This document shows positions 6,001-26,931 of a DNA stretch of 52,173 nt, in pieces (the stretch's first letter is position 1; each line of letters starts with the position of its first letter). The notes below the pieces were generated by a model. The model did not search any database, was not told the DNA's origin, and saw only the letters and a program-made list of their open reading frames with translations. The stretch comes from a virus (Duplodnaviria > Caudoviricetes), in IMG/VR virus record IMGVR_UViG_3300023199_000094, positions 1 to 52,173 of that record; one strand, 5' to 3'. A program made the position numbers and the translations under genes.

Positions 6001-7947
6001 CGGTGTAAAAATCTCACGAATACGCTTACCTAAACCAGACAGGGGTGTCGTAACGACTGCGCCAATCGTTTGACCAATACGCTTCAAGAATCCAAGGCCT
6101 GACCGAACAGACTTCGGCAATATCTTCTCGAATAGACTCTTAACCTGCCCGCCTATAATCTTCTGTACATTAATGGCGCGTTGTAAAATAAGAACGCTAG
6201 TCCTACGTACAAAACCCCGCACAACATTACCGAAAAATATGAAAGGTAGGGAAATTGTATTTACAGGGATTCTTAACAGCGTCGGCCAAAAGTTCGACAC
6301 GATCTTACTGAACCGTGTCGCCAGACGCTCAGTAATGATCTCATTTTGCTCAAGGTTAACACCCCACGCTTTAGATGCAGCGGTGTTGCTTATTAGACTT
6401 TTAGTCGTACGTTCAAGCTCGCCGGCAATACCAAAAACATCAACACGTAAATTAGCAACGTTATTGACCGTGGTTAAAAGAATCTTTGTAATCGTATTTA
6501 AAGACTGAACAATCGAGCTGATCGTGCTTCTAATAACGTTAAAAATCTTGATAATACCCACTCCCTTCGGAAGTTGTTTCCGAAGATCGTTTATAGCTTT
6601 GAACACAAAACTCAAAGCGTCGCGCGCTTGACCAAAGAATATAATAAATCTTGACCGACCGTCACCAAGCGCAGCTGAAATACGTAAGAAACCAGCCCTC
6701 GCCTTTGAGACAAAGTTACTTACTAATGGAGTAAGAATAGAAAAGACACCGATAATACCTGATAATCCTGCGGACAGGGTCGTGACGTTGAACACCACAC
6801 TGATTAAAACCGACGACGTTAAAGACACCAACCCTAAAATAGAAGCCACTCTATTAGCTAATATTGTGATAGGCGAGATAAGATTATTAATCGAGATGAA
6901 TAAAGTGTTGATTAAGGCTGCTAGTCGACCGAGTACCGATTCTGGCCGCTGCGATGCAAAAATACGAACCTGCCCAACGATACCTTTAAAGATCGCGTTA
7001 AACCCTAATAAAGTCACCGACACTAGACCGAGTGTCGAAATTTTCGTAACTAAAAAGCCTAGAATACCATCAATCTTAAACAGACTAGATCCGATTGCGT
7101 CAACTCGAGGGACAAGCGGACCAATAAAACTTTGAACCGTAGTGCCTATACCTTTAACAACCGAACCAATACCTTCCACTAAACTAAATATAGCGAAAAA
7201 AGTGTTTTCTAAAACAGAAAAAGTCGTTGAGAAAACACCTTCAATAAAAGAAGCAACGCCCGCAAAACCGGAAGTCAAATTAACAGCTACTTGCTGAATA
7301 TTGTCCGATAGAGTCGTGAGTGAAAAACCAAATCCAGACACGCTAGCCGTAGCCGCGCCGGTCGCTGCCGTAGCCGCGCCGGTCGCTGCCGTAGCCGACT
7401 GAATTGACGCCTCAGCGGTTGCGACAGACGCCGAAACAGTCTGTACAGCTTGTGCCGTCGCTTCCGTAGTGGTGGTAGCTGTCGTCATTGACGACACAAA
7501 ACCTGGTATGGACGTAAAACCAATAAACGAAATAACCGCCGCCCACTGACTGAAAGACTCAAAAGCTCTATTCACAAATCGAGTAAGAGTATTCGTCGTC
7601 TCGGACGCTTGTCGGCCAACTTCTTCTAGTGATCGATTAGTCTCTGCCCGAGTACGTCCGATAGCCCCGCCAACTGTCGACGTAGCTCTTACAATCGCAT
7701 CAGACGACGCGCCTGCAACAGCCGAAAAAGCTGCCCCTATCCGATCCAACGTAACTCTAATCTTAGATAGATTAAAATCAATACGCTGAATCGACGATGT
7801 CAGTTTAGTGTCGTCTGCCGCAATAGAAACGTTAAATCTCTGCTTTGACAGATTAGCAAGCCTATTGTCTAGTTTGCTAATCTGTTCAAAAACATTATCT
7901 AATTTCGCGACAAAATTAGTTACGACGTCGCCGACGAGTAAGGCCAT
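1..7947 (-). CDS. Tail tape measure protein (3' end beyond window; >2649 aa)
   Basis: ATG at 7947 overlaps the upstream TAA (TAATG) and begins MALLVGDVVTNFVAKLD. The frame was open where I translated it (7947 region, 6661-6780, 1-60). It is absent from the ORF track, consistent with no stop before the window edge. Ala/Gly/hydrophobic and charged coiled-coil segments; directly follows the tail chaperones. Confidence 0.9.
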   Translation of the reverse strand, partial: MALLVGDVVTNFVAKLDNVFEQISKLDNRLANLSKQRFNVSIAADDTKLTSSIQRIDFNLSKIRVTLDRIGAAFSAVAGASSDAIVRATSTVGGAIGRTRAETNRSLEEVGRQASETTNTLTRFVNRAFESFSQWAAVISFIGFTSIPGFVSSMTTATTTTEATAQAVQTVSASVATAEASIQSATAATGAATAATGAATASVSGFGFSLTTLSDNIQQVAVNLTSGFAGVASFIEGVFSTTFSVLENTFFAIFSLVEGIGSVVKGIGTTVQSFIGPLVPRVDAIGSSLFKIDGILGFLVTKISTLGLVSVTLLGFNAIFKGIVGQVRIFASQRPESVLGRLAALINTLFISINNLISPITILANRVASILGLVSLTSSVLISVVFNVTTLSAGLSGIIGVFSILTPLVSNFVSKARAGFLRISAALGDGRSRFIIFFGQARDALSFVFKAINDLRKQLPKGVGIIKIFNVIRSTISSIVQSLNTITKILLTTVNNVANLRVDVFGIAGELERTTKSLISNTAASKAWGVNLEQNEIITERLATRFSKIVSNFWPTLLRIPVNTISLPFIFFGNVVRGFVRRTSVLILQRAINVQKIIGGQVKSLFEKILPKSVRSGLGFLKRIGQTIGAVVTTPLSGLGKRIREIFTPSTRRISQDFQEVKKEQNDVVKTINKSREARDKEINRLRSQIKTTDGVAEAQKRLENAQTRVRELRQRTAKDVVRAQSQIDRSRKEEEARLKDVEKQLAANVKAFEDLKAAEAALLKVSRSSGSEDEKKIQRLRNEVRASIAVIETDNEEIKTLQEKAKAVDQEIKKRNILREKLDAGVALAKRAEEQRKQSIVIADKERQRLARLTTAAEDHAKSVSSLQDLLKATTKAQEGSAEAAKKAAVALSKRIKEDKKAILALKEKGVIDRENQVKAQNSIKVAKALLEIESKNKAAASVRIRQQKEKVEAIEREIDTTSKIIAKQKSASKATREQEKAVRVAREAFNQSFDLGKIQAFIQAEQESIKTTVEKARVEKNTSKVALDTQKQVIAAIDREQEELNQTIEREKARLKLVIDTNQDILKNRLKIQQQIREENDAIADSIKIIEKKAQKDIDFNRQRLKALESVEQALIRERALQLSARGTPTARSRDPFSESLERKAREAATFRAPGDVLTKSIENSGAKIEAAVAGTRGKVEAAVQGTVQQTVQQSTQGAQVISKSVFEIGRDIIRARAEALLGATGRSALGGGKSSQDVITAFASGDLAAFLKTRVAQQKTASKFFGKAASTITKDFSAVRSGVNSLSRDVPEARKKFTDFANALEGFLLKLNETSPKIRQRLEEQFRGVKNVKLPGQKEFQSFVGRIGVVLAQQGEDAARKLIPNFIKVAAEGAAKADKVRLQSAFIDLLQESVVDFIPQSEPKNPRSPLRGAGVRFGQGFYSLLTKGLRGASSSGLGKAVSAVATAVDKNVAQIGSKITNRLIASSEQNQPLVKQAYTTLLVKPVSASLELLADTIRAGFDSRVTEGVRQSTISASQVIENFGAKLAQGKLREAFEETSKFIGNLFKDIGKRSPILIGLVFSFNKVRDVLQKLGTLDPVIGAFKDLFGVAKGVFKVFSGANDIIEGVVGVLTLRLDKALKIVSGTFKALSGVFTIVSRSALLIKNAFDVVQAAARTLSSGVSSVFKGLFSGTKGLFSGVKRLFSGVKRLFSGKSVQKDLSSINKDIDAAQQKSLENRKKLFERSGKITADSLARGIRKGIPDISKATDKAVEEGVANKVPNSPPKTGPLAGNFLNKAGRNITSTVGKGIIAGNKDLFKSMTGVLTTSVKNQLPASPPLSGPLAGNFLSDAGRKMIKFISLGILSEKNPLSRAVSFTLTAAFLPIFGPASLVFQGIKSLISGVVNLKNTVQSLARASGLESLKKLGEQIVDLGLAAERFAPSDETSEDFVKKFNAFGTAVRKFRVDSTRLETIFLTLDRQLRDAVADPVSDAAANFEKLGVDIRSFADGTEDIIDVFLRVSDATASGFIQPEDVQQAFDLTAAQFGNLRNLVLAGGDEIRQAIEETSAVANLFTEDDIAVAKDFNNQMVNLDVALEGLQSRLFTAIAPQLQSLLDSVVGFFAKNRDLVLGTIDAIGRLFGVALRIAGKLLTLISTDAPRVFSGLAEFIFVTGSNLFRVLVQKAQEALPIVFTLISKLQPLLFKVAQFVGEVVIPFVIGQVRLAIESIINSISNDLLNNIQRSITQFLINLDKALPDFAKFGLAEAQEQAQAQAQANLQASLSDVLDVEQRIKRTQDRIRSTESEIARFESNLQSEQLANELQAAQEAVAEAEEAISDAIRSSAPIERVRELSLIRLDAIDNLELIQRSVSDSERDQRIAQRALEQEKELLEQQQEEYERLLPVLEEAQQKALTSGSAVVDRIDANIKRQREQSARDLAKRADELGAELGEEASKTIKNIAPEVEALGKVAFETLGDVGSTIGAGLSNLAGDLGLADEVTKAEAILSEIGGLVGQIKTTEGVSDELLRAAEAVESSLQTARRRNLALIKDFDNQVNEIRGKLSSELSGIETLDIADIARTRETAFKELEQSVIKLGQAQLRFIRDRQILELEIAEAGGFQFASDQQVADLQFLNQVIGVQEARLRSVLQELENIREVSGSIDQLNVL
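2861..2940. repeat. 21-bp tandem repeat in TMP (7-aa unit LFSGVKR-like)
   Basis: cctgaaaacagacgcttaaca twice, followed by degenerate copies. Confidence 0.85.
7349..7396. repeat. 21-bp tandem repeat in TMP (ATAATGA unit)
   Basis: gtagccgcgccggtcgctgcc twice plus a partial copy. Confidence 0.85.
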
Positions 7948-8570
7948 TATTCCCCTCTTGTCTTCTTCAGTTGGGCGAGCTTAGCTTCATACTTTAAGGT
8001 TTGTGTTTCAACAATACTATCTAAAGAAGGCACTAAGACGCCTGTATTAGACCGCAGCCAACGTCGGAAATTATCATGAAAAGCGCGGAACATCTGTTCC
8101 TTCTTTTTCTGAGACATTTTTTTAGATTTATGGCGTCGTTTCGTACGCACAGGCAGCTCGTATTCTTCGTCTTCCTCGTCATCTTCGTCTTCATCACCGA
8201 TGTCACGAAGAAAACCGTCTACCTCTTCAATCTTGTCTCCTAACTCATCAAATGCGGATCTCTGACCTTTTTTCGTAAACATAGTTGCGGCGGCAGCCAT
8301 AATCGTCATAGTTAAATAACGTTGTTGCTCTAGTGTTTGCTTACTTACCACCAAAACGACTTCTTGAAACACATCAATAGGCAACTCTACGACGTATTCA
8401 GCGTCCCAGCCCGCTCGCACCAAAGCGGCCACGGCTTCCACAATGTTGATTCTATTGTTGTTTTCATCGCGAAAATCCGTGGCCGCTTTTAGTGCTTCGG
8501 TGGAGCCTTTTAGGCTAGCGCGCCGCTTAGTGCGTTTTTTAGGCCGCCATGCTCCCAATTGACGACCCAA
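7947..8570 (-). CDS. Tail assembly chaperone, frameshift-extension part (gpT-like)
   Basis: Overlaps the end of the 178-aa gene in the -1 frame, has no convincing own start, and lies immediately before the TMP. Confidence 0.8.
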   Translation of the reverse strand: MGRQLGAWRPKKRTKRRASLKGSTEALKAATDFRDENNNRINIVEAVAALVRAGWDAEYVVELPIDVFQEVVLVVSKQTLEQQRYLTMTIMAAAATMFTKKGQRSAFDELGDKIEEVDGFLRDIGDEDEDDEEDEEYELPVRTKRRHKSKKMSQKKKEQMFRAFHDNFRRWLRSNTGVLVPSLDSIVETQTLKYEAKLAQLKKTRGE

Positions 8571-9046
8571 ACGCCTCTGAGGACCGACACAAGGTCGGCA
8601 ATACCCACTTCATCAATAAACGACGAATCTACATGCTTCTTGCATGTTTCATCACTATACACCGACCTAATCACAATCTCTTCAATATCGTTTTCAGACT
8701 CTGCAAGCAGGGTCATAATACCCTGCATGACTTTGGCGTTCCTCTGGCCGGTGGTCTCGCCTTCTTTCGTAGATTCAAAAATACCAATAGGTTCTAACTT
8801 AGACATAAGGGTCTGAACCTTCTTAATCATACCGAATAGATCACGAGCGCCCCACTCTTTGACGTAAACGTCATCCTCCGACGACGTCAACGTTACTTTC
8901 ATAATAGTCCGCTTACGGAGCGGCTGGCTCACCACAGTATAAGTATTAGATTCGTCCTTTTTAACTTGGTCTTCGGAAACATCTTCCGTCGTCTTAATAG
9001 GCGGCGGCGGGGGAGGTGTAGGACTCTTCGTTTCGGTGGTCGTCAT
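8510..9046 (-). CDS. Tail assembly chaperone (gpG-like)
   Basis: Lies between major tail protein and TMP; slippery heptamer near its 3' end. Confidence 0.8.
   Translation of the reverse strand: MTTTETKSPTPPPPPPIKTTEDVSEDQVKKDESNTYTVVSQPLRKRTIMKVTLTSSEDDVYVKEWGARDLFGMIKKVQTLMSKLEPIGIFESTKEGETTGQRNAKVMQGIMTLLAESENDIEEIVIRSVYSDETCKKHVDSSFIDEVGIADLVSVLRGVWVVNWEHGGLKNALSGALA
8534..8540 (-). promoter_or_regulatory. -1 programmed ribosomal frameshift site A AAA AAC
   Basis: Minus strand reads GGC CTA AAA AAC GCA (GLKNA); a -1 slip enters the frame KKRTKRRASLKGST of ORF 7947-8570. Confidence 0.85.
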
Positions 9047-9081
9047 TGCAATTCCTTATTATATAATCCCTAACTACACGT

Positions 9082-9121
9082 AAAATAGGCCGAGAGGGGT
9101 GCCCGCACCCCTCTCGGCCTA
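9082..9121 (-). terminator. Intrinsic terminator after major tail protein
   Basis: Perfect inverted repeat TAGGCCGAGAGGGGTG/CACCCCTCTCGGCCTA followed by TTTT on the minus strand. Confidence 0.8.
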
Positions 9122-9154
9122 CCAATTCAATCCCACCGAACTATATAACTACGA

Positions 9155-10027
9155 TTAGCACTCGATACCAGTCGAGACCTTTTCGAAGTTATCGAACAGG
9201 TGGAACGAACCACGGTTACCGGTACCGTCAGCCAGAATCTTGCAACTAAATGACTGCGACATGAACGCCGCCGGATCAATAGTGGTATCGCCTTCGATAC
9301 CGATGCTGACGAACGGGAACTGGTAGGCGAACAGCGGACCAATGCGGTTAAGCGCCTGAATCTTCATAGCGCCTTCCAACACCGCGCCCGTCTGGATACG
9401 ATATTCAGTTGTTTCGCGGACGTAATTATACGTGATGATAACCTCGGCGCCGTCCACAATAGCACCAGACGACATACGAGCAGTTGTAGCCGGGGTACGA
9501 CCCGTGCCTGTGCCTGCAGCCTGAGTAAAGGTGTAATCCACACCCTCCACGTAGGTCACAGAGCCGTCCGTCGAACGGACGAGCACATCATCGACGGTAT
9601 CATCCTCCCAATACAGATCGACATAGTCTAGCGAGCCGTCTTCAATCGCTAGCGCATCAATGATCTCGGCCGTTGTACCCACAAGACGAATACGCTTCTG
9701 CTCAAGCACTTCATACGTCGACGCAGCATCCGGTGCAATATTCGGACGGAAAAGAAGCACAAGGTTATTACCGACAAGCTCATCAAGCGTGAACTTGATA
9801 TCGCCAGTAACCTTGTTGACGACGTGTTTATCCTCAGTCAGAAGACCGTTACGCGCGCTTTCGTGCGTAAGGTACTCGTCCGTGAGCGTCAGGGCAATCG
9901 ACGCTGCGTTGCCAAGATCAAACCACGGGCAAAGCGTGCCGTCATCATCGAATGGCGCAAACCAAATCGACAATGCCGACGGCATCATGTAGTTATCGGG
10001 ATTGTTAGGTAATTTTACAAGAGCCAT
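9155..10027 (-). CDS. Major tail (tube) protein
   Basis: 290 aa, beta-rich with DLGNA and EGVDYT motifs typical of siphovirus tube proteins; precedes terminator and chaperones. Confidence 0.8.
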   Translation of the reverse strand: MALVKLPNNPDNYMMPSALSIWFAPFDDDGTLCPWFDLGNAASIALTLTDEYLTHESARNGLLTEDKHVVNKVTGDIKFTLDELVGNNLVLLFRPNIAPDAASTYEVLEQKRIRLVGTTAEIIDALAIEDGSLDYVDLYWEDDTVDDVLVRSTDGSVTYVEGVDYTFTQAAGTGTGRTPATTARMSSGAIVDGAEVIITYNYVRETTEYRIQTGAVLEGAMKIQALNRIGPLFAYQFPFVSIGIEGDTTIDPAAFMSQSFSCKILADGTGNRGSFHLFDNFEKVSTGIEC

Positions 10028-10043: not shown

Positions 10044-10547
10044 TTAGGTTAGGTCTTTTCGGACCGACGTTAACTCTAACCTGAACTGATACACCGCTAG
10101 GCCGTTATCCTCAATCCCGACAAGAATTGGTTCATTAAGTGGGTTAACGCTATGTACACAGAGACAGCCCACTTGAAACTGAACATTTATCCGTCGTTTA
10201 AAGAATAAGAATAACCTCGCTGCATCGTTTTGTGCTTTATCTCGGTGTCCACCGTAGATGTTGAAACTAACCGCTCCTCTGGTCTTAGCGGGGCGAGTTT
10301 GAGACCCAAAAGGGTCTAAAATAATCTCATTACGTATGACGACTACAATGTCGTCTCTAGCCGACTGACTAGCGCCGTCTTGATCGTAATATTCTTTCGG
10401 TAACAAATCCACGAAAAGGTTTTCCGAAAAAGCCAACGTACGGCCGTTCGATAGCTCGATCCCCAAGCCACTGAGGTAGATAGCCACCGCGCGGTCGTGA
10501 GTGACGACCGGGGGCAAAATCTCTGGGAACTCGGGGTTATACGCCAT
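10044..10547 (-). CDS. Tail completion/terminator protein
   Basis: 167 aa immediately before the tail tube gene; C-terminal P-I-L-V-G-I-E-D-N-G..Y-Q-F pattern resembles tail terminator proteins. Confidence 0.6.
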   Translation of the reverse strand: MAYNPEFPEILPPVVTHDRAVAIYLSGLGIELSNGRTLAFSENLFVDLLPKEYYDQDGASQSARDDIVVVIRNEIILDPFGSQTRPAKTRGAVSFNIYGGHRDKAQNDAARLFLFFKRRINVQFQVGCLCVHSVNPLNEPILVGIEDNGLAVYQFRLELTSVRKDLT

Positions 10548-10999
10548 TATACTTCTGGTTTACTCGACCGTTTTAATAGATACCGCTGGTGTATGTTCGT
10601 GTTGAATATACCTGCGTCGTGTTTGTCAGTGCTAATTATGAACCACGTCGAAAACGAATCAAACAACACCATATCGCCTGTGGTGAAATCTCGGTCAATG
10701 TCAGGGTGTTCTAACAGGCGTTCTTGTATCCATTTACTCATCTCCCAAACAGCGTCGACGTCTTCAGCCAGTACAGTCAATTCCTGACGGCGCTGCCGGT
10801 CCACGTCAACCCAAGTCTGCAGTATCCACGGGGCGATGTCTACGACTAAGTCTATCTCCTCGTACGACGGCTCTCCGGCCGGTGTGCGAGCGCCGTAGAG
10901 GTCCCTATATGGAGACGCTGCGGTCTGTCCCGTCTCATCAGCGCGTTTCTTTAACGCAACTTTTATAAGACGTGCGTTCGTAGTCGAATTATAAGTCAT
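10547..10999 (-). CDS. Head closure/stopper protein (putative)
   Basis: 150 aa, beta-rich, follows the head-tail adaptor; position-based call. Confidence 0.5.
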   Translation of the reverse strand: MTYNSTTNARLIKVALKKRADETGQTAASPYRDLYGARTPAGEPSYEEIDLVVDIAPWILQTWVDVDRQRRQELTVLAEDVDAVWEMSKWIQERLLEHPDIDRDFTTGDMVLFDSFSTWFIISTDKHDAGIFNTNIHQRYLLKRSSKPEV

Positions 11000-11565
11000 G
11001 ATTGCACTGATCTAAAAACGCGGTCAAGGTTACCAGTCTTAGCTAATAAAGGCCGGACTAGATTGTAAGCTTCCGGACAGAGTTTATGCGTACGCGCATG
11101 TCTTGGATCCGCTGACTCTGTTCCACCTGCTCGCGTCACACTAAAAATACCTTGCGCTTGATGATCTAGTCTCTCATCCAACTGAACACCGCGAAGTGTA
11201 TTATTTAATATGTACCAAGCCTGCTCACAACAGCCCTGAGCAATAATAACAGGTATCGACTGTTCAAGATAGAAAATATCACCATAACTACCAATACCAA
11301 GGTATCTCGGCCATTCGCGAATTTGTTGAATAATCAGTTTATGACCGACCCAATACTGTTGGTCTAGTTGCAAAGTCGCTTCGCGCAAAGCGCTTATACG
11401 GTCTAGGGGAGCCGACGGATCTTGTTCAGGAACAGAGAACCACGCGGCTTTACGCGTTAGCGTATCGCTAAAATAATCGTTAGAATAGTTCACTGTTGCG
11501 TACGGCAACACGGGCTGGTGAAAATCTAACTGCGTTTGATAACCATTATCCGTATTGGCAGGCAT
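10996..11565 (-). CDS. Head-tail connector/adaptor
   Basis: YATV..S.DYF...W...ALREAT..LD...W.G.K....Q.REWPR...IP..I...CCEQA pattern of phage head-tail adaptors. Confidence 0.7.
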   Translation of the reverse strand: MPANTDNGYQTQLDFHQPVLPYATVNYSNDYFSDTLTRKAAWFSVPEQDPSAPLDRISALREATLQLDQQYWVGHKLIIQQIREWPRYLGIGSYGDIFYLEQSIPVIIAQGCCEQAWYILNNTLRGVQLDERLDHQAQGIFSVTRAGGTESADPRHARTHKLCPEAYNLVRPLLAKTGNLDRVFRSVQS

Positions 11566-11578
11566 TTTACATCCTTTA

Positions 11579-12127
11579 CTATAACAGTCGTCCCAATACG
11601 GTCACAGAACCTATAACAGCGGCCAACATACCGACCAAACGTCCGGCGGTAGAGGCAAAAGCTCTCTTCTCTTTAGAGGCATCGGCTTTGGTTTGAAGAG
11701 CTTCTATCACTGCTTTCTGATCTCGTTTAAGTACTTGAATATTTGCGCGGGTGTCGTCTAGAGAAGTAGAAAAGATTTTAACACTACGCGATAATTTACT
11801 AAACGCGCCTTCCACTTTTTCCCAAATATCAGGATCGCGCTTGGCTTTTGATTCGGCTGAGGAGACTTCTCTTTTCACACTCCGTAGGCGATCAGAAATA
11901 TCCTCTAAGATGTCTTCTAGGTCTTCCGTGCGACGGCTGTTGATATCGCGCTCGTTCCTTGCCGAAATTATCTCTCGCTTCAGCGATTCAATAACTCGTT
12001 TAGCCGTGCTTAAACGTTTCTCTAAATCACGCGCCTCTCTGTCTATAAAATCAAAAAAGTCATCAACGTCGTCTAAGACACCAAAGCGATCTAATATAGT
12101 ATCTTTAAGAGAAGATAAAACACTCAC
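11579..12127 (-). CDS. Coiled-coil protein with C-terminal hydrophobic anchor
   Basis: 182 aa of charged heptads ending LVGMLAAVIGSVTVLGRLL; GGAG RBS upstream of GTG start. Confidence 0.7.
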   Translation of the reverse strand: MSVLSSLKDTILDRFGVLDDVDDFFDFIDREARDLEKRLSTAKRVIESLKREIISARNERDINSRRTEDLEDILEDISDRLRSVKREVSSAESKAKRDPDIWEKVEGAFSKLSRSVKIFSTSLDDTRANIQVLKRDQKAVIEALQTKADASKEKRAFASTAGRLVGMLAAVIGSVTVLGRLL

Positions 12128-12203
12128 TGCACCACTCCTTAGTACTTAGACAATAAGAATAACTCATATTCCGTGGCTAAAAGAACTTGATAAAACTCTC
12201 CAT
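12097..12203. repeat. 107-bp perfect direct repeat, copy 1
   Basis: tagtatctttaagagaag...gataaaactctccat identical to 14133-14239; flanking bases differ on both sides. Confidence 0.95.
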
Positions 12204-14132
12204 CCGCGGATGGCCGCGGGATGCGGGCCACGGGCGGCTCAGCGGCGGCCGACCGAGGGCCAGCGCGCCACCGACTCGCGCACACGGGCAAACTCGCCGG
12301 CCGGCACGCGGTACAGCTCGCGCAGCAGCCGGTCCGCCTCGTCCTCCACGTCGCGCACGTCCGCGTCGGCGTCGGCTGAGAGACGCCCCGCCAGCTCGCG
12401 GGCCATCGCCGCCAGCCGGTCGCGGGCATCCACCGCCAGCGGCGGGCAGGGCAACGTGCGCAGGTGCTTCACCTTCACCTGCGGCGACGTCTTCTGCCGC
12501 GCGTCCGGCCAGGTCACCCGGTGGAACCACGCCAGCAACGCGCTGTTGAGCAGCACCGCAAGCGCCTCCACCAGCTCGTCGGGCGCCTCGCACGCCAGCA
12601 CGCTGTTGCGGAAGTACGTCGGCCGGCCCGTCCCGTGCAACGCCGCCAGCGGACGGTCGGCCGTCTGCCGCAACAGCAGCGGAACCGCCTGGTAGCGCTC
12701 CAGCTGCCCGATCCGTGGTGGCGTCACACCGGGCGGCACCGCGGCCGGCGGCGCGACCCGCAGCCACTCCGACGGCTCGCCGACGACAAACGGCCGCACG
12801 TCGCGTCCGCGTCGGCACGGCAGCCAGAACGCCCCGTCCACTCCCTCGACGCCGGACCGGCTGGCCTCCCCCGCCGGCCGCTCGCGCGCGATCAGCTGCG
12901 CGGCCACGCCGCCGGTGTGCACGCCGGGGTCGGCAAACGACACGCCCGGCAGGTCGACCAGCTTCGGCAGCAACGTCAGCCGCGCCAGCAGCGACTCGTG
13001 CCCCGTTGGCGTGGCATGCCCGACCACCGCCCCCTCGCTGGCCGTGGCGGCCGCCAGCCAGCCATCCACCGCCGGCGGCGAGTCGTCGGCGCGCGGCGGG
13101 CCGAGCACCAGGATCACCGCCGGCCCGGTCACGCCGTCGAACGCCGACTCGCCGACACGCTCGATGTGCCGCAGCCGGTGGCGGCGCAGCAGCGCCCGGC
13201 GCACGCCGCGGTAGCCGTCGAGGTGTGCGACCTGCTCGGGCACAATCGCGCCGATCACGCCGTCGTCGGCGACGAGGTCGGACGCCAGCTCGAGAAACGC
13301 GCCGTGCGCGGAGGGGAAGCCGGCCATCCCGAGCGGAAACGCCTCGCGCAGTGCCGCGCGCCGCTCGTCGGAGAGGGCGTGCGCCTGGCGGTTGCCCCAC
13401 GAGATCCAGGGCGGGTTGAGCAGCACCACGTCGAACGGCTCGACGCCGGCCCACGTCGCGCGGTCGAGTGCGTCAGCGGTGCGCAGGTTGGCGCCCGGCA
13501 ACGCGGCGCGCGCGGCTGCCACTGCATCGGGGTCCACGTCCACGCCGTGCAGCTTGAGCGCTGCAACCGGCTGCTGCGCGGCCGCCAGCAGGAAGACGCC
13601 GTGACCGACCGCCGGATCGAGCACGCGCACACCGCGCGTGCGCCGCAGCTGCGCGAAGGCAAGCTGCGTGATGTGCCCGGCCAGCTCACGCGAGGTGGCG
13701 TGCGCGCCGAACGGATGCTGCCGGGACGGGCGCGGCACGGCTACGCCACCCGCGTGCCGGGCGGCACGTCTGCGTCGGGCGCCAGCAGGATTACGTCAAG
13801 CGGCGTCCCCGCGTCCGCGTCCGGCACCGCGCCGAGCACGAGCACCTCGCTGCGAACGGACGCCACCTGCCGCGGCGGCAGGTTGACCACCGCGCAGACC
13901 TGCCGGCCGACAAGGCCGCGCCGTTCGCGCGGATCACCCGGATCACCCGCGCAGTCCGCTTCGCCAGCCGCCACACCACCCGCGCGGCCCGCCTTGCCGG
14001 GAAGATAGCGCCGCGTGATCTGTGCACTGCTGCGCTTCACGCCCAGCGGGCCGAAGTCGATCCACAGCTGCAGCGCCGGCTTGCGCGCCTGCGGGAACGG
14101 CTCGGCGCGCACCACCGTGCCGACGCGCAGCT
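12204..14132. mobile_element. 1929-bp GC-rich foreign insert (csaA + DNA methyltransferase); genuine capture or assembly chimera
   Basis: Abrupt composition switch (line 12241-12300 is 47/60 G+C; line 12001-12060 is 23/60) exactly bounded by the 107-bp repeats; no transposase or integrase inside. Confidence 0.6.
12239..13738 (-). CDS. N6-adenine DNA methyltransferase (TaqI/Eco57I-like, gamma class)
   Basis: Motif I VLDPAVGHGVFL, GVDVDP, motif IV FDVVLLNPPW, and a C-terminal LAVLLNS...P.VKV..L..LP TaqI_C-like region. Confidence 0.9.
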   Translation of the reverse strand: MPRPSRQHPFGAHATSRELAGHITQLAFAQLRRTRGVRVLDPAVGHGVFLLAAAQQPVAALKLHGVDVDPDAVAAARAALPGANLRTADALDRATWAGVEPFDVVLLNPPWISWGNRQAHALSDERRAALREAFPLGMAGFPSAHGAFLELASDLVADDGVIGAIVPEQVAHLDGYRGVRRALLRRHRLRHIERVGESAFDGVTGPAVILVLGPPRADDSPPAVDGWLAAATASEGAVVGHATPTGHESLLARLTLLPKLVDLPGVSFADPGVHTGGVAAQLIARERPAGEASRSGVEGVDGAFWLPCRRGRDVRPFVVGEPSEWLRVAPPAAVPPGVTPPRIGQLERYQAVPLLLRQTADRPLAALHGTGRPTYFRNSVLACEAPDELVEALAVLLNSALLAWFHRVTWPDARQKTSPQVKVKHLRTLPCPPLAVDARDRLAAMARELAGRLSADADADVRDVEDEADRLLRELYRVPAGEFARVRESVARWPSVGRR

Positions 14133-14163
14133 TAGTATCTTTAAGAGAAGATAAAACACTCAC
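13741..14163 (-). CDS. csaA: CsaA/tRNA-binding OB-fold protein fused to 10 phage-derived N-terminal residues
   Basis: LRVGTVVRAEPFPQARKPA..L.IDFG..G.KRSSAQIT..Y and LVGRQV.AVVNLPPRQVA...SEVLVLG are CsaA signatures; MSVLSSLKDT comes from the repeat. Confidence 0.85.
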   Translation of the reverse strand: MSVLSSLKDTKLRVGTVVRAEPFPQARKPALQLWIDFGPLGVKRSSAQITRRYLPGKAGRAGGVAAGEADCAGDPGDPRERRGLVGRQVCAVVNLPPRQVASVRSEVLVLGAVPDADAGTPLDVILLAPDADVPPGTRVA

Positions 14164-14239
14164 TGCACCACTCCTTAGTACTTAGACAATAAGAATAACT
14201 CATATTCCGTGGCTAAAAGAACTTGATAAAACTCTCCAT
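14133..14239. repeat. 107-bp perfect direct repeat, copy 2
   Basis: Identical to 12097-12203; contains the 3' end of the neck gene, an RBS and the first 10 codons of the next gene. Confidence 0.95.
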
Positions 14240-14591
14240 TGTCTACTAACGGTTTTTCCAAAAACTTAGCAGGGCCGAAGAAACCTAGGCTGGGGTGATT
14301 AAAGGGTTTTTCGTGTTGTATTTTGGCGTACACAACATTGGCACTACCGTAAACGACACGCGCTACTTTTACAGCATCCTCCAGACTAGGCAGTTCTTCG
14401 ACCCTGCCTGATTTCAGTAACTCACCTGTCAAAACCGGGACGTACAGCCGTGAGTCTTTTAGTAACTCTTTAGCCACGACCCTAATCGCATGGTTCGCGG
14501 CTTCCGGCACCGTCTGAGCGTACCGCACCAGACCTTGCACAAGAGAGCTACTAGAAAACGAAACGTCAATAGTCCCGATGACTTTAGGCAT
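14175..14591 (-). CDS. Neck protein (HK97 gp10-like)
   Basis: VPVLTGELLKSG...YA..QHE......AKFLEKPL motif of gp10-like neck proteins. Confidence 0.8.
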   Translation of the reverse strand: MPKVIGTIDVSFSSSSLVQGLVRYAQTVPEAANHAIRVVAKELLKDSRLYVPVLTGELLKSGRVEELPSLEDAVKVARVVYGSANVVYAKIQHEKPFNHPSLGFFGPAKFLEKPLVDNGEFYQVLLATEYELFLLSKY

Positions 14592-15349
14592 TACTCTTTA
14601 ACAGCGGGGGGTACCACCGGCTTTTTATTACTGTCTTCTGTTACAGGAGGGGCCGGCGGTATCTTCATAGCGGCCTTAACCTCTTCAGGAGGTAGTACCG
14701 AAGTCGCCTTTGCTGCCGAATAACCAGTAGTGACCGACTTGCTCCTCTGTTCGTAACGCTCGCCTGTTTCCGGCGAGTCAGCAATAAGATTACTTACGCG
14801 GAAGATATCCTTAACGTTCGGTCGTTCGTCCTTATTCTGAACAACCGAAACAGCGTTAGAACGCTGAATGTTATAGACCTTACGCCAAATTTCTCCTTTC
14901 ATAACCGAACGGATGTTATCATCGTTCGTGTCGAAATTATCCCAATATAGAAGATGGACATGTTCTCTCATGTCATCGCCAGCCGACCACTGCGTACGCG
15001 TCAACGCCTTATTCTGGTTGTTCACGTAGTCAATAATCTGTCTCGCCACAGGAAGCGTGTACGAGTTGGCTTTGGGACCTATGTAATAGCGACGTCGATT
15101 CCACAAAACACTAAACTTGTGCGACGACGAAATCCTAAACGTATTTTCTTTAATCTCTGCCTGTAGTCGCGAGCAGACAGGTTCGTGCTGGCGTGTTATT
15201 TCCTTCAAAATCTCGATAGGGGGTACTTCTTCCCCAATCTCACCTGCAGTATAACCCTGATTAATAAGCTTACGATAAGTGTGGGTCGTTATGTCTCGAA
15301 GCAGTTCTAGAGCGTTTGCACTTGAAATTTGAGCAGCGATCTTGTCCAT
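14591..15349 (-). CDS. Hypothetical protein (head module)
   Basis: 252-aa ORF with GGAAGG RBS, TAATG-coupled to the next gene; Pro-rich C-terminus. Confidence 0.7.
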   Translation of the reverse strand: MDKIAAQISSANALELLRDITTHTYRKLINQGYTAGEIGEEVPPIEILKEITRQHEPVCSRLQAEIKENTFRISSSHKFSVLWNRRRYYIGPKANSYTLPVARQIIDYVNNQNKALTRTQWSAGDDMREHVHLLYWDNFDTNDDNIRSVMKGEIWRKVYNIQRSNAVSVVQNKDERPNVKDIFRVSNLIADSPETGERYEQRSKSVTTGYSAAKATSVLPPEEVKAAMKIPPAPPVTEDSNKKPVVPPAVKE

Positions 15350-15373
15350 TTAAACCTTCCTTGTAGTAAAACG

Positions 15374-15419
15374 AAAAAGGGGGTGAGGTTGCGAACAATA
15401 ACACAAACCCTCACCCCCT
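15374..15419 (-). terminator. Intrinsic terminator after major capsid gene
   Basis: AGGGGGTGAGG/CCTCACCCCCT stem with a T5 tract on the minus strand. Confidence 0.75.
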
Positions 15420-15434
15420 AATTCGACTTATGTA

Positions 15435-16391
15435 TTAAGCAGCAAGGTCGCGAATCGAAGCCGCGTGCCACGGATTCTCATAGGCGAACTGGCTGTAGTG
15501 TTTAACAAAGAACTGCGAAGCGTCAAAGGAACCCGGATCACGAGGCTCCACAGCAAAGTCCTGTAGAAGCTTCCACTTGATCTGGCTCATGTCGATAAAG
15601 TCCATGCGCCCCGGCTCGTAATCCGGCACCGCAACCACAGGAATGCCCGTGAATAGAAGGGTATCAAAACCACCCTCCATGCGTTGCGATTCTTGACGAC
15701 GGCGCCGCTCCTCAAGCAACGTACCATAAGACGTCCAAAGATCATAATTACAGAGAATATGCGAGACGGTAGCGCCGCGCGTTCTCATTTCATTATAAGC
15801 TTGGAACATCAAGGTTTCGGTAAGCGGGCGAGGGACACCGCCGTTGCTGAGAACGAACGATCTCCACCACGCATTTACCGACCGATCAATACCGGCATAG
15901 GTCGTAACAAGTGAACCATCGTCGATAGCCGCCTGAATACCGGTAATATTAGCGCCATCAGAACGCAGAACCGGATTGGCACCGTTAAGGTTACCAACAC
16001 CATCCGCCAGAAGCTGGAACTCAATCTGACGCTTCAGGTCACGCATGGCCTGAGACGTCTCAGTAGCAATCGCATTAATAATCGAGTTCTGCGATTCCGA
16101 CTGAGCCTGAGCCAGACCAGTCACACGAATAACAGCTTTATTTAGCTTCCAATCAAGCTTTGCCGTTTCGTATGCCTGCTCACCGGCGCTACCGAAATTT
16201 TCAGTCTCGAAGTACGAACCAACCGAGCTGTTGCCCGCGTAGTTCACCTTCCACTGAATATCCTTCTCTTTATAAGTCTCAACCTTCGGCGCAACAATAT
16301 TACCAAAAACCGTATCGCGACGAAGAGTTTCTCTGAACGCAGGGCCAAACTGTTCACGGATTAGTTTGGCCACTTCAGAAGCTTCGAACAT
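15435..16391 (-). CDS. Major capsid protein (HK97 fold)
   Basis: 318 aa after the scaffold, followed by a terminator; DG.G...I.G..A.IDDG....TYAGIDRS...WW and GGFD.L.F.GIPVV motifs. Confidence 0.9.
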   Translation of the reverse strand: MFEASEVAKLIREQFGPAFRETLRRDTVFGNIVAPKVETYKEKDIQWKVNYAGNSSVGSYFETENFGSAGEQAYETAKLDWKLNKAVIRVTGLAQAQSESQNSIINAIATETSQAMRDLKRQIEFQLLADGVGNLNGANPVLRSDGANITGIQAAIDDGSLVTTYAGIDRSVNAWWRSFVLSNGGVPRPLTETLMFQAYNEMRTRGATVSHILCNYDLWTSYGTLLEERRRRQESQRMEGGFDTLLFTGIPVVAVPDYEPGRMDFIDMSQIKWKLLQDFAVEPRDPGSFDASQFFVKHYSQFAYENPWHAASIRDLAA

Positions 16392-17692: not shown

Positions 17693-18535
17693 CTATTTAT
17701 TGAAACCCGCAAAATGCTTGTTTACTATTGTGGGTAAGTCTTTTATTCCAAAAACCTTACCTGAAAAATTGTCCGAAACAGGTACTATTCTATGTCTACA
17801 GTTCGGGTGGAACAGGTGTACTGACAGTTCTTTAGACTCTGTCACAAACTCCAACGCTTCTAAATCTATCACCTTTTCGTTACACCATCTGCAAGTAGAA
17901 GCTGAATTATGAACAATACCTCCCACAACCTTAAACACCTTGTTTTTTATATAAAACCTAACAAAAAATTTGGTTAGGTCACGTTCAAGATTATCAGGTA
18001 TTGTTTTGAATAAGAGTTTCACGTACGGCACCAAACCTAAATTTACTTTACGTCCCTGTCTCTTAGGCTTGTTTAAACCAAATATATTAAGTATAAAACC
18101 TAGAATACCGCCCTGTGGTTTAGGTTCGGGTCGTCCTCGTTTGATAGCCAACAACCGACGCCGCTCATTTTCTTTACGTATTTGTCTTTTAATCTCCGCG
18201 GTCAGCTTTTCAACATGTTTCTGACCTATACGAGCCGCGACAACAAACCCTTTATTTAAAGATTGTTCCCAAGAGTTAATCGACCTATCTTTCAACAGCT
18301 TAAAAATAGAAGGTACAGGGTCGTTGCCTATGCGCGGGCGTATGCGATTTTGTACGTAGTTCTCAAATAGCTTGTTGGTCTCGGAGATGGCATAAGACAT
18401 CAACACATCTTTAATTTTAATCAGCTCGCCTTCGTCAAATCGTGTGATATCAGCTTCTACGGTCTTGACATAATTTCTCAAAGTGCGAAGATGCGAATTA
18501 ATATCCGCGGCAAAGAACGCTCCGAATATAGCCAT
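17693..18535 (-). CDS. Minor head/head morphogenesis protein (MuF/gp7-like)
   Basis: Basic 280-aa protein after the portal with C..C and HPNCRH motifs. Confidence 0.8.
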   Translation of the reverse strand: MAIFGAFFAADINSHLRTLRNYVKTVEADITRFDEGELIKIKDVLMSYAISETNKLFENYVQNRIRPRIGNDPVPSIFKLLKDRSINSWEQSLNKGFVVAARIGQKHVEKLTAEIKRQIRKENERRRLLAIKRGRPEPKPQGGILGFILNIFGLNKPKRQGRKVNLGLVPYVKLLFKTIPDNLERDLTKFFVRFYIKNKVFKVVGGIVHNSASTCRWCNEKVIDLEALEFVTESKELSVHLFHPNCRHRIVPVSDNFSGKVFGIKDLPTIVNKHFAGFNK

Positions 18536-20355
18536 TACATTATGTTATTAGAGTTAAATGTATCCGTTAGAGTCTCTTGGCCGGGAGTTAAACCCGTACC
18601 GCCGGCCGTATCCAAAGGACTGTTAGCCTCCATACCAAAGTTTTCTTCCTGCTTAATCGCCATACCAAACGCCTCATCCGCCCCTGTCATATCTTCTTTA
18701 ATACGATCCATCTCTACGCTAATTTCATGATCGGATAAACCATCCACATCACGAAGCACGCGCTCAACAGAAATAGACTGCTGCCCTTGCAGTCTCTCCA
18801 GCAACATACGCTCATCCTGCGGTAGCGTTGGCTTAAATTTGATTTCAATATTCTTAGCTTTAAAAGCATCAAGGTTCAGAGACCCAGGTAGCACATCTCC
18901 CACTTCACGTTGGGAAGTAAGTACTTCATCTTCATCCTTGGTCGGGTCGTCAAGAACCTCCGAATCCGAATACCGCAACTCACCTGAAGCATGCAGCTGC
19001 ATAACATACACCCAAAGCAACCGTCTTAAAGCTGTTTTAAAATCTTTTTCTTTGCGGCGGACACGATTCAAAGTAGGTGTGAGGCGCATTTTATAAGCCA
19101 CACCTGACTCTGGTACCACTTGTTCGTGGTTAATAATCAAAGAACCGCTGATTTCTGCTAAAGTACAAAACATATTGACGTCATTTTTAAACTCGTCCGT
19201 AGCTTCCTGAAGCTGAGCATCCCACGTCAGGTATTCCGGTTTAAAATCAGCGTTCTCTGGAGATATGAATAGTACCTCGTCTCTGAAAGCACGGACCAGA
19301 ACTTCCCCAGTAAAGGGGTCTTTCTGTTGCATGTCCTCAGGGACGAGTAATTTAGGGTCGGCGTGGATGTTTAAGATACGAGAGCGTTGCGTACCCCTAA
19401 CGTTAATAGATAGCTGAAGTTCGGTCAGATCATCATAATCAGTAATAAATTGTTTCATAAATATCTGATTAGGGATGATCTGTAACAGAAAATCGTCAAT
19501 ACCCGTCTCTTGATGCGAAATGCCTTCCTCGTCAACAGGAGGCAGGTTATCGTCTAGCCACCGAGGATCTAAAACCAACAAAATAAAGTCATCTTTAACC
19601 GTATAGAGATAGTACTCAATGCGACCTCGATAGTGCCTCTCCTCAAAGATTATGCCGTCTGGCTGGTCTCCTTCATCGGGTTTATTAAACCCTAAATCCT
19701 CTAGTGTGTAGCCTTCCGGAAGACGAAGTTGGGACGGGTCAATATTTATCTTCTTGGCGACCCACTCAAACCTATCGTTGCTTCCAGATTTCCACTTATA
19801 GTAGAGCTCTTTTGGGTGGATAACAACAATATCGACACCGTCGTCATCCGTAACCACCTGCAAGCCTAACAGGCCCATTACGGACACTGCGGTGGCCCAG
19901 TCAGAAAAGTAGTCTGGTAAGCCTGCCTCATCGCGAATATAATCATCAATCTCCGAGATGCCGGTTAAAATCTCAACGCCGCCTCCCATCATAAGATCGA
20001 CATACGTCTTCGTAGCAAAACGTAAAAGATTATATTTCTTATAAAAGCTTTTACCAGTCTTCATCCACTCAGGGCGTAAGTGCTCTTCGTGCTCGCCCAT
20101 ATAATACGCAAAGTTCTTCTCATAGACAGACGCCCGTATCTTATCTGCGTCTGTGCGCCAGCGTATTTTATTCGCCTCGTCCTCATTGACATCGTCTTTT
20201 AGGAACTGACGGGCATATAAATCTCGCTCAGCTAGCCTATCTATGACATTCTGTGTGTACCGGCTTTTACTGATAGCGGTCTTAATCTGCGCTTCAAATA
20301 TATTGACAACGCCCGGCACGCCATACTGCGAAAACCCATTAGGACTTAGTGGCAT
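18535..20355 (-). CDS. Portal protein (SPP1 gp6-like)
   Basis: 606 aa; YYMGEH, YN..R.....Y.D, TDYDDL..LQ..IN, EYLTWDAQ and SGVA.K motifs; position between terminase and minor head gene. Confidence 0.9.
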   Translation of the reverse strand: MPLSPNGFSQYGVPGVVNIFEAQIKTAISKSRYTQNVIDRLAERDLYARQFLKDDVNEDEANKIRWRTDADKIRASVYEKNFAYYMGEHEEHLRPEWMKTGKSFYKKYNLLRFATKTYVDLMMGGGVEILTGISEIDDYIRDEAGLPDYFSDWATAVSVMGLLGLQVVTDDDGVDIVVIHPKELYYKWKSGSNDRFEWVAKKINIDPSQLRLPEGYTLEDLGFNKPDEGDQPDGIIFEERHYRGRIEYYLYTVKDDFILLVLDPRWLDDNLPPVDEEGISHQETGIDDFLLQIIPNQIFMKQFITDYDDLTELQLSINVRGTQRSRILNIHADPKLLVPEDMQQKDPFTGEVLVRAFRDEVLFISPENADFKPEYLTWDAQLQEATDEFKNDVNMFCTLAEISGSLIINHEQVVPESGVAYKMRLTPTLNRVRRKEKDFKTALRRLLWVYVMQLHASGELRYSDSEVLDDPTKDEDEVLTSQREVGDVLPGSLNLDAFKAKNIEIKFKPTLPQDERMLLERLQGQQSISVERVLRDVDGLSDHEISVEMDRIKEDMTGADEAFGMAIKQEENFGMEANSPLDTAGGTGLTPGQETLTDTFNSNNIM

Positions 20356-26929: not shown

Positions 26930-26931
26930 GG

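Follow-up and report, generated by a model that had tools for sequence, protein, structure and literature searches.

A GC-rich insert of probable bacterial origin with a solitary adenine methyltransferase gene between 107-bp direct repeats in an uncultivated tailed phage

The locus and its genes

The window, i.e., the whole stretch of DNA analysed here, comprises 52,173 nt of a metagenome-derived virus record that represents an uncultivated, siphovirus-like tailed phage; CheckV estimates its completeness at 52%. Its minus strand carries a single open frame of 2660 aa from position 7980 to 1 under the standard code, presumed to encode the tape measure protein. Stop-codon recoding, considered for the absence of long ORFs at 1-9155, was rejected, as this frame is open under the standard code. 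The window also codes for enzymes of recombination and repair, among them an exonuclease and helicases. Homologues of the TerL protein reach at most 58% identity; among the clusters of 7 TerL matches, only distant ones carry names. A TerL profile search against genome contigs retrieved 213 relatives, the best 80 of which are all at most 27% identical and belong to many phyla. The window carries no tRNA genes, and neither the tRNA search nor the TerL relatives yielded a host signal.

Between two genes of this phage, termed A and B here, lies a segment of strongly deviating composition flanked by the two copies of an exact direct repeat, R, at a spacing of 2036 nt (Table 1). Only two exact repeats longer than 100 nt exist in the window, R and one of 108 nt; the latter (25841/26303) sits within a 153-nt tandem-repeat ORF. 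The GC content steps sharply at both insert edges, from 0.449 in the rest of the window to 0.757 inside, and the GC content at third codon positions is 0.86-0.92 in the insert ORFs vs 0.38-0.52 in phage genes. R is one contiguous 107-nt piece that holds the end of gene A, a ribosome site and the start of gene B, and the insert is thus placed between otherwise adjacent genes.

Table 1. Features of the insert region, with coordinates in the window
Feature	Position	Strand	Description
Phage gene B	11579..12127	-	182 aa; coiled-coil-like; no family; intact; own AAGGAG site in left repeat copy
Left copy of R	12097..12203		dangling duplicate of the gene-A tail (12139-12203), AAGGAG, functional gene-B start
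Palindrome CCATCCGCGGATGG	12200..12213		perfect, 14 nt; straddles the insert/repeat junction (10 nt insert + 4 nt R)
Foreign insert	12204..14132		1929 bp, GC 0.757; 5'-truncated csaA, methylase, 35 nt downstream spacer
N6-adenine DNA methyltransferase	12239..13738	-	499 aa, complete, gamma class; GTG start 2 nt past the csaA' stop
Chimeric ORF	13741..14163	-	140 aa; duplicated gene-B start fused in frame to a csaA/tRNA-binding gene
Right copy of R	14133..14239		on the minus strand: gene-A end, stop, AAGGAG, GTG start and first 10 codons of gene B
Phage gene A	14175..14591	-	138 aa; head-completion/minor head-like protein; intact; last 20 codons and stop inside right repeat copy

An earlier note on this DNA had described perfect repeats around a GC-rich insert, intact flanking phage genes, captured genes that run with the phage genes, and the lack of a transposase, an integrase or terminal inverted repeats. 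All of this is confirmed. Genes A and B are both uninterrupted despite the insert, and they share the minus strand with both insert ORFs. Gene A matches the minor head protein family phrog_556 (E 5.2e-08) and, weakly and under the cut-off, Minor_capsid_2 of Pfam. Neither of the two insert ORFs contains a transposase or integrase domain according to Pfam, and the repeat scan found no terminal inverted repeats of the insert, only imperfect GC-rich pairs. Without these hallmarks and with a duplication of 107 bp, the segment does not resemble a transposon or insertion sequence; with one end inside csaA, it does not resemble an integrase-driven element either. The note had spoken of captured genes in the plural, which holds for the complete methylase gene, whereas the other gene is a 5'-truncated csaA fused to the start of gene B.

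In this fusion ORF, the N-terminus MSVLSSLKDT derives from gene B and is joined to csaA' through an AAG codon that spans the junction. An alignment with 7 CsaA homologues shows phage-derived residues in place of approximately 11 missing native N-terminal codons, as well as a 26-aa internal insertion. The ORF scores 38.8 bits for tRNA_bind of Pfam (cut-off 27), while the NCBIfam scores lie slightly above the cut-off for NF007495 (118.8 vs 117) and below it for TIGR02222 (115.8 vs 119.65) and NF007496 (121.8 vs 171); homologues are at most 58% identical to it. An in-frame fusion is expected in one of three cases by chance. Since a headless csaA is included, the insert appears as an unselected cut.

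The methylase is recognised by N6_Mtase (PF02384; 37.9 vs a cut-off of 20.4) and Eco57I (PF07669; 28.5 vs 25.3), and PADLOC calls it as MTase_II and mad2. Motif I, DPAVGHG (D41-G47), and the NPPW motif (N108-P109-P110-W111) are located in conserved columns, and all 50 invariant columns of a 15-member alignment, in which the protein itself is one row, are kept. Its TaqI-like C-terminal region reaches 20.5 bits for PF12950 (cut-off 26.5), a domain present in most of its relatives according to precomputed annotation. Matches in the PDB (2ibs, 7qw5) are M.BseCI (2.1e-12) and M.TaqI (3.6e-10). With its motifs intact, the protein may be an active methylase. No cognate nuclease is found in the insert, which therefore does not represent a restriction-modification system.

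With respect to expression, the fusion ORF is preceded by AAGGAG-N7-GTG, while no comparable site lies ahead of the methylase gene. A consensus scan for sigma-70-type sites lists no promoter inside 12204-14132. On the minus strand, palindrome CCATCCGCGGATGG is followed by AGAGTTTTAT, and both together form a weak terminator-like hairpin of 5 pairs at the junction, the sole hairpin of the insert; a promoter and terminator of its own, as in a moron, are thus not seen. As the phage ribosome site and start are fused in frame to csaA' and only 2 nt separate its stop from the next start, the methylase gene would most likely share the transcript of the late operon and depend on translational coupling. 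Perfect palindromes of at least 14 nt occur only 6 times in the 52,173 nt, and that one of them spans the junction has a chance of approximately 0.003 by a rough estimate. This palindrome gives a hint of a putative microhomology at the joint, as it would be expected if the hairpin was native to the donor and if ATGG was common to donor and phage.

Read support for the junctions

A repeat about as long as a read or k-mer, with zero divergence between its copies, in a metagenome-derived record of 52% estimated completeness, raises the question of whether the insert is part of any phage molecule, or whether a chimeric assembly or a chimeric library has joined a GC-rich bacterium to the phage. Read evidence was taken from k=31 Logan contigs of four runs of one study, X1-X4, rather than from raw reads; each contig has a single depth value, which is not the depth at the junctions themselves.

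In X1, a contig of 1989 nt and depth 8.4 maps to 12174-14162, i.e., 30 nt of R, the whole insert and again 30 nt of R, in line with k-1 = 30. On the phage side, the contigs at 11259-12126 and 14210-14810, of depth 9.1 and 7.16, respectively, both end after 30 nt of R. An arrangement X-R-insert-R-Y without a third branch should give just such a graph, and no bacterial continuation of the insert branches off in the X1 contigs. In X2, another sample of the same study, a contig of 888 nt and depth 5.34 covers 11771-12658 with 0 differences and comprises 326 nt unique to the phage, R in full length and 455 nt of the insert. The right-hand junction (14132/14133) is covered in X1 only, X2 having no cover at 14040-14393. 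As X1 may be the source sample of the record's assembly, only X2 counts as independent.

All contig pieces listed for the insert in X1-X4 have 0 differences. The insert also occurs at 100% identity in X3 and X4, with only few phage pieces listed for these runs, and a 216-nt contig of X4 is exact to 13952-14132 while its last 35 nt differ from the repeat; this contig, the only possible donor continuation in the four runs, may stem from the donor's own locus in the same study. Both observations could be read in favour of an artefact. X3 and X4, with shares of 0.20 and 0.15 and mostly 151-nt pieces, were left out of any inference on habitat or abundance, and loose contig ends from unrelated GC-rich contigs at 90% likeness were ignored.

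The earlier note had named a chimeric assembly as a serious alternative, a concern that the contigs largely remove. An assembler-independent k=31 assembly of X1 yields both junctions on one contig whose depth is that of the flanks and which does not branch, and the left junction recurs in X2 at a depth (5.3) far above barcode bleed. It is very improbable that two random joints 107 bp apart would spare both genes and recur in two libraries. Furthermore, the contig of the record also resolves the other exact repeat of 108 nt. Chimerism in assembly is thus very unlikely, and we assign only a very small probability to an artefact of either kind, assembly or library.

The depth sum of the bin 12093-12269 in X1 is 17.4, which gives a depth of approximately 18 for the repeat core, twice that of the flanks. 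This rough sum suggests that the filled form is dominant in X1. At k=31, a repeat of 107 nt would hide an empty site from the contigs, and a circle would look like an integrated form.

Affinity of the insert and the search for its donor

The methylase is closest, at 53-56% identity, to solitary genes on Planctomycetota chromosomes, and its best protein matches are Planctomycetota MAGs (54%). A profile search retrieved 103 genome loci with relatives of at most 53% identity, of which 80 were kept; 56 of these 80 carry Planctomycetota titles. The phylogeny places the methylase of the window next to a Planctomycetota MAG as its sister (SH-aLRT 100). The related loci have a median GC content of 0.65 and a maximum of 0.74. 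Taken together, these data make a Planctomycetota bacterium the probable donor. The GC content at third codon positions of the methylase gene (0.92) lies so far from that of the phage genes that no amelioration of the insert has taken place.

Inspection of 40 neighbouring ORFs at 13 related loci revealed genes for an epimerase, LpoB, DUF1425, MutS and PEPCK, and no restriction-enzyme domain; all 13 loci represent a housekeeping neighbourhood. A csaA gene was found beside none of the 80 relatives by tblastn, and its adjacency to the methylase gene therefore appears specific to the donor. The "methyltransferase cassette" of the earlier note is accordingly to be replaced by a random cut of a bacterial core chromosome which starts in the middle of a gene. 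The template-switch capture that the note had proposed, or another illegitimate recombination, fits this anatomy.

These neighbourhoods also bear on the idea of a non-autonomous element that was moved in trans by an integrase or transposase encoded elsewhere, with R as att site or target duplication. Direct repeats do flank the insert, and site-specific elements can leave long att repeats. Such an element would, however, hardly start inside a housekeeping gene and lack terminal inverted repeats; neither ORF has a domain of either enzyme, the methylase family resides among housekeeping genes at 13 of 13 loci, and the exact methylase protein occurs on one contig only in a collection of 5.8 billion clusters. 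We regard this idea as exceedingly improbable.

Neither the donor locus nor a close phage relative with an empty site was recovered in the searches. The methylase protein found 0 relatives among 391 pattern hits in genome contigs and 0 among 473 in metagenome contigs, and an exact 40-mer of the insert had 0 matches in metagenome contigs. With megablast, positions 10500-16000 matched none of 50,697 phage records. In IMG/VR, an exact 50-mer of R had 0 matches and the major capsid protein 0 relatives; gene A matched short stretches of two loci there, 36% and 50% identical, of no use for synteny.

Proposed origin and comparison with known systems

We consider it likely that a 1929-bp piece of a GC-rich bacterial chromosome was recently captured by illegitimate recombination, and this grading refers to the explanation as a whole, including expression and removal through the repeats. 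It starts from what is observed, namely the structure of the locus, its support by contigs from two samples, the identity of the genes, their affinity and their intact motifs; joining, expression, methylation, selection and excision would follow as outlined here. A donor fragment would have entered the head-tail joining module of the phage by template switch or by end-joining at a staggered break, with two joints 107 bp apart on the phage, so that this stretch was duplicated. The repeat would span a gene boundary because only a duplicating event keeps both essential flanking genes whole. The donor DNA would have been cut at random, starting approximately 11 codons into csaA and ending 35 nt past the solitary methylase gene. 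If expressed late, the methylase would modify progeny DNA before packaging, and the 107-bp repeats would make the insert removable by homologous recombination, from which the note had derived a possible on/off anti-restriction methylase. The lack of differences among the insert pieces of X1-X4, together with the lack of amelioration, points to a recent event.

An insert between identical direct repeats is also the exact product of a single crossover, and a circle of 2036 bp (the insert plus one R) could have been formed and then have integrated at R in the manner of a Campbell-type event, as the earlier note had suggested, for which the exonuclease and helicases of the window could be mentioned. 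The circle itself, however, would need two illegitimate joints, so that this route adds a step and leaves the joints unexplained. No replication or maintenance function is present in the insert, and no separate contig for a circular junction was reported, though k=31 contigs do not distinguish these forms. We judge this route to be unlikely.

As the filled form seems dominant although it would be removable, the event may be very young, or the methylase may be under selection. A genuine capture could also have brought in a functionless passenger, whose methylase is not usefully expressed or active, and which is neutral or slightly harmful and soon lost by recombination of the repeats. This would agree with the extreme codon composition, with the lack of a ribosome site or promoter of its own for the methylase, with the headless csaA as a sign of an unselected cut, and with the 100% identity in sister samples as a sign of youth. 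On the other hand, the filled form appears to prevail in X1 and is present in a second sample despite the 107-bp repeats, the methylase retains every family-invariant column, and the in-frame fusion with its 2-nt stop-start spacing suits translational coupling. A mere passenger is therefore rather doubtful in our view, and we retain the capture of a presumably expressed methylase gene as the preferred reading.

A further-reaching version of this capture is put forward tentatively, as less likely to hold than to fail. The phage (45% GC) may replicate in a Planctomycetota host of approximately 70-75% GC and may have stolen the host's own solitary methylase via the fusion, in a form that has already swept the population in at least two samples. 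The phage lies approximately 30 GC points below the insert, an unusual gap for a phage and its host. If true, host-gene capture would be seen here at a datable natural intermediate stage, its donor still present in the habitat, and Planctomycetota phages would gain one of their rare links to a host, over a gap of 25-30 GC points.

The usual explanation of phage mosaicism and of the gain of morons or AMGs is illegitimate recombination with subsequent selection. To our knowledge, the raw products of capture are almost never seen, because scars erode, as do passenger fragments. The scar of the present locus is still intact, with a 107-bp duplication, a headless passenger, unameliorated composition and a possible microhomology hairpin. 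Donor sequence seems to be present in sister samples as well, and the reads could therefore reveal directly how the joints were made. The locus moreover connects an unclassified phage lineage physically with a bacterium, and it offers a natural test of whether a phage profits from the "self-mark" methylase of a host.

Phage-borne solitary adenine methyltransferases serve against restriction. The protein described here resembles them as a solitary N6-adenine methyltransferase without cognate nuclease, and differs from them in being recent, Planctomycetota-like at 53-56% identity and of fully bacterial composition. With M.TaqI and M.BseCI (2ibs, 7qw5) it has in common the catalytic domain at the N-terminus, which contains NPPW, and a putative recognition domain may follow at the C-terminus as in these enzymes. 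The similarity is remote (E 2e-12 to 4e-10) and confined to the catalytic domain, and a partner nuclease is absent here. Microhomology-mediated template switching (MMBIR/FoSTeS) and filler-DNA capture at breaks, described mainly in cellular genomes, yield a templated foreign segment and a flanking target duplication with little or no homology at the joints. Foreign segment and target duplication are alike in our case, which concerns a phage and where the microhomology is putative.

In a limited literature search, we found no paper on a bacterial fragment within a duplication of approximately 100 bp in a phage. The nearest case is mycobacteriophage LRRHood, for which PMC3029335 describes approximately 1.35 kb of extra DNA between 29-bp direct repeats at genes 43-46, relatives having a single copy. 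As in LRRHood, the direct repeats lie at the end of one gene, ahead of the next, and flank extra DNA; in contrast to its 29-bp repeats and phage-like repressor DNA, the present repeats measure 107 bp and enclose a piece of a bacterial core chromosome that is 30 points richer in GC and carries a truncated gene at one end. The same source treats morons as extra DNA between formerly adjacent genes, with deviating composition and a possibly beneficial gene (PMC3029335), and in position, composition and possible benefit the insert is in good agreement with this picture. Unlike classical morons with their own promoter and terminator, it seems to rely on duplicated phage start signals, and it keeps the duplication and the truncated passenger as a scar. 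Deletion between direct repeats is described for the genomes of phages T7 and Sf6 in PMC5630979, which predicts that the insert would be precisely deletable through its 107-bp repeats; among the k=31 contigs, to which it would be invisible, no such deletion product was observed. The insert is thus a further case of phage moron or host-gene capture, with an acquisition scar that is unusually well preserved.

Anatomy of the repeat, the insert and the host phage genome

The segment between the two copies of R, an exact 107-nt direct repeat, is probably a genuine, contig-supported piece of Planctomycetota-like chromosome, captured very recently and carrying a solitary adenine methylase. The phage is unclassified, and the captured piece lies within its head-tail module, with the 107-bp duplication on both sides. 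The GC content of the insert is 0.757 versus 0.449 in the remaining window, and the GC step at each edge is completed within about 100 nt. Only one other exact repeat of more than 100 nt exists in the window, within a tandem array of a 736-aa ORF, and the observation of R is thus real and not a chance match.

Coordinates and composition of the repeat, the insert and the neighboring phage genes
Feature	Position	Strand	Remarks
R, left copy	12097-12203	-	begins 35 nt past the methylase stop; dangling duplicate of the gene A tail, then AAGGAG-GTG
R, right copy	14133-14239	-	contains the 3' end and stop of gene A
R, part after the gene A stop		-	AAGGAG, 7 nt, GTG, first 10 codons of gene B
Insert	12204-14132		1929 bp
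Methylase ORF	12239-13738	-	complete, 499 aa
Chimeric csaA' ORF	13741-14163	-	140 aa
Gene B	11579-12127	-	182 aa
Gene A, minor-head/head-completion-like	14175-14591	-	
Major tail protein	9155-10027		
Ad1 head-tail adaptor	10996-11565		
Major head protein	15435-16391		
Portal	18535-20355		
Large terminase	22235-24079		

In the right copy of R, the 10 gene B codons continue in frame into the insert via an AAG codon that spans the junction, while the intact gene B is now served by the AAGGAG-GTG of the left copy. The insert part of the resulting chimeric ORF (csaA', a 5'-truncated csaA) aligns to CsaA/tRNA-binding chaperones, which are up to 58% identical, only from their residue ~12 on, so the native N-terminus is absent. 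The earlier note had described both flanking phage genes as intact and the captured genes as co-oriented with the late operon; gene A and gene B are indeed whole, and both insert ORFs lie on the minus strand. Its term "cassette" is misleading, as the insert is a randomly cut fragment with one of its two genes beheaded.

Relative to all seven aligned CsaA homologues, the csaA' part (13744-14130) carries a Gly/Ala/Asp-rich insertion of 26 aa at ~13900-14000, and an imperfect direct repeat of 22 nt (13944-13965 and 13977-13998) overlaps this insertion.

The phage is a tailed, siphovirus-like virus with nearly all genes on the minus strand, represented by a linear IMG/VR record of 52173 bp with a CheckV completeness of 52%. 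An open frame of 2660 aa (7980-1, minus strand) continues beyond the window start. Presumably it encodes a tape measure protein of great length, which would imply a long tail and agrees with the CheckV value. Immediately upstream of the large terminase, the 736-aa ORF (24746-26956, minus strand) contains an in-frame tandem array (25228-26547; period 153 nt, i.e., 51 aa) of about 4 copies with 63-80% match, including an exact 108-nt repeat at 25841 and 26303. Apart from a sub-threshold NMB0315_dom_I hit, the protein has no family matches. In the nucleotide-metabolism module, a 300-aa protein (29980-30882, minus strand) shows an unusual fusion of an N-terminal phosphoheptose-isomerase-like part to a dCMP deaminase domain.

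Independent contigs and the assembly question

The earlier note considered a chimeric assembly a serious alternative. Four public sequencing runs of one study (X1-X4) contain parts of 10500-15800, and the Logan contigs of each run, assembled independently at k=31, were mapped onto this region. In X1, a contig of 1989 nt (depth 8.4) equals 12174-14162 with 0 differences and covers the insert from end to end, with exactly 30 nt (k-1) of R on either side. For the phage flanks, X1 gives one contig at 11259-12126 (depth 9.1) and another at 14210-14810 (depth 7.16), each of which ends 30 nt into R. This contig graph is the one expected if the sole paths run from unique phage sequence through R, the insert and R back to unique phage sequence, and the unbroken insert contig argues against a bacterial continuation of comparable depth, which would break it at the edges. 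X2, coded as a different sample, provides an 888-nt contig (11771-12658, depth 5.34, 0 differences) that runs from unique gene B sequence through the entire left copy of R into 455 nt of the insert.

With both junctions contained in an X1 contig at flank-like depth and the left one bridged in X2, the chimera concern loses most of its ground and an artefact appears very improbable, bearing in mind that the right junction comes from X1 alone, that X1 may be the source sample of the record, and that X1-X4 come from a single study. From the X1 bin 12093-12269 (mean 17.4), the repeat-core depth is about 18 in a crude sum, twice that of the flanks, as would be expected with the insert in nearly all phage genomes; contigs, as distinct from reads, display neither junction-specific depth nor empty-site molecules. 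A further X1 contig (depth 4 versus a total of 12.4) misses 2 nt at 13746, just ahead of the csaA' stop and methylase start, and could represent an insert variant or the locus of a related bacterium.

The methylase, its relatives and the donor

The methylase passes the Pfam cut-offs for N6_Mtase and Eco57I, with a match to TaqI_C below threshold. Its nearest solved structures are M.BseCI and M.TaqI, the match being limited to the catalytic domain, and PADLOC classes it as a type II methyltransferase that matches mad2 in part. All 50 invariant columns of a 15-sequence family alignment, in which the window protein counts as one row, are present, including NPPW and the motif-I glycines. The relatives are overwhelmingly Planctomycetota. 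The top protein matches are Planctomycetota MAGs (54% identity), and a profile scan that used a single genome for each species yielded 103 loci, of which 80 were kept, 56 with a Planctomycetota title. In a quick maximum-likelihood tree (81 rows), the window methylase has a Planctomycetota MAG as its sister (SH-aLRT 100) and falls within a set of 64 rows, 52 of them Planctomycetota. GC content of the kept loci has a median of 0.65 and a maximum of 0.74.

The 40 ORFs neighboring the relatives in 13 loci are housekeeping genes (NAD-dependent epimerase, LpoB, DUF1425, MutS, PEPCK and others), none with a restriction-enzyme domain. The best reading of the insert is therefore a stretch of bacterial core chromosome with a solitary methylase, and not a mobile restriction-modification module. 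A csaA gene is found near the methylase in none of the 80 loci. One neighborhood of this solitary TaqI-like methylase family recurs in Planctomycetota MAGs (loci L005, L006, L007, L017, L028 and others), with a divergent NAD-dependent epimerase upstream, LpoB or DUF1425 downstream and, in 2 loci, MutS nearby. This recurrence suggests that Planctomycetota have a lineage-wide housekeeping adenine methylase.

Exact insert pieces of 151-250 nt (depth 2-3) also occur in X3 and X4, where phage pieces are few. One 216-nt contig of X4 is exact over 13952-14132, its match ending at the last base of the insert, and its other 35 nt are unlike R. Such a tail would be expected of the 5' end of the donor's own csaA, a lead which, if correct, leaves no microhomology at the 14132/14133 joint. 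At the left joint, a perfect 14-nt palindrome, CCATCCGCGGATGG, spans 10 nt of the insert and 4 nt of R; with only 6 perfect palindromes of at least 14 nt in the window, the estimated chance of one crossing either joint is roughly 0.003. In the simplest reading, the donor had this hairpin 3' of the methylase, and ATGG, common with the phage, served as a 4-nt microhomology. Alternatively, filler synthesis may have produced the 24 nt beside this joint, which resemble a stuttered CCGCGG(G)ATG unit. One contig of X4 follows the insert from 12228 to the right and departs from the window in the letters before that position: if these letters are the native flank of the donor, 12204-12227 would be filler and not donor DNA, but the contig may equally be an unrelated GC-rich one.

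That the donor is the host of the phage is a real possibility, at best as likely as not. A core-chromosome fragment without mobility function is most easily encountered inside the donor cell; the 30-point GC gap between insert and phage argues against a simple identity, although phages can differ widely in GC content from GC-rich hosts. No independent host signal emerged: the window has no tRNA genes, and TerL relatives, their cluster names and genome matches gave none.

Acquisition, expression and comparison with known systems

In the proposed mechanism, each end of a single bacterial fragment was joined to the phage without homology, at two positions separated by 107 bp and in an order that duplicates the interval instead of deleting it. 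A nascent strand may have quit the phage template just past codon 10 of gene B, copied 1929 nt of bacterial DNA and re-entered the phage 107 nt upstream; or opposite-strand nicks 107 nt apart may have been filled in and the ends ligated to the fragment. Both routes would yield the observed product. Campbell-type integration of a circle of 2036 bp would end in the identical product but requires the same two joints beforehand. Placement was presumably set by selection: of random joints in an essential late operon, only those duplicating across the boundary of gene A and gene B would spare both genes and the translational start. The GC3 contrast (0.92 in the methylase versus 0.38-0.52 in phage genes) and the identity to sister-sample sequence show the event to be very young.

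Since a scan for sigma-70-type sites lists no promoter-like site inside the insert and the sole hairpin is a weak one at the junction, late transcription should read through. Gene B passes its strong start region on to the csaA' ORF. No comparable ribosome site precedes the methylase, whose GTG start lies 2 nt past the csaA' stop, which favors coupled translation; the in-frame fusion (prior 1 in 3) is what such coupling would need. If expressed late, a solitary adenine methylase would mark progeny DNA, and this mark would copy that of the host if donor and host are the same. The 107-bp repeats should permit precise loss of the insert, a behavior of direct repeats that PMC5630979 describes in T7 and Sf6; retention of the insert in two samples is therefore suggestive of selection, though no proof of it.

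Defining features of a transposon, of an integrase-driven element and of a restriction-modification module were sought and not found, and the insert is none of these. Functionally it is comparable to a moron or to host-gene capture, but a classical moron has its own promoter and terminator, which the insert does not show. No equivalent description came up in the literature searched. The nearest documented structure found is a segment of mycobacteriophage LRRHood (PMC3029335), 1.35 kb long and lying between direct repeats of 29 bp that occur only once in related phages. Compared with that account, the repeat here is longer (107 bp), the captured DNA comes from a bacterium, a passenger gene has been truncated and fused, and the study apparently still contains the sequence of the donor. 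The acquisition scar is unusually informative for a capture of a known kind.
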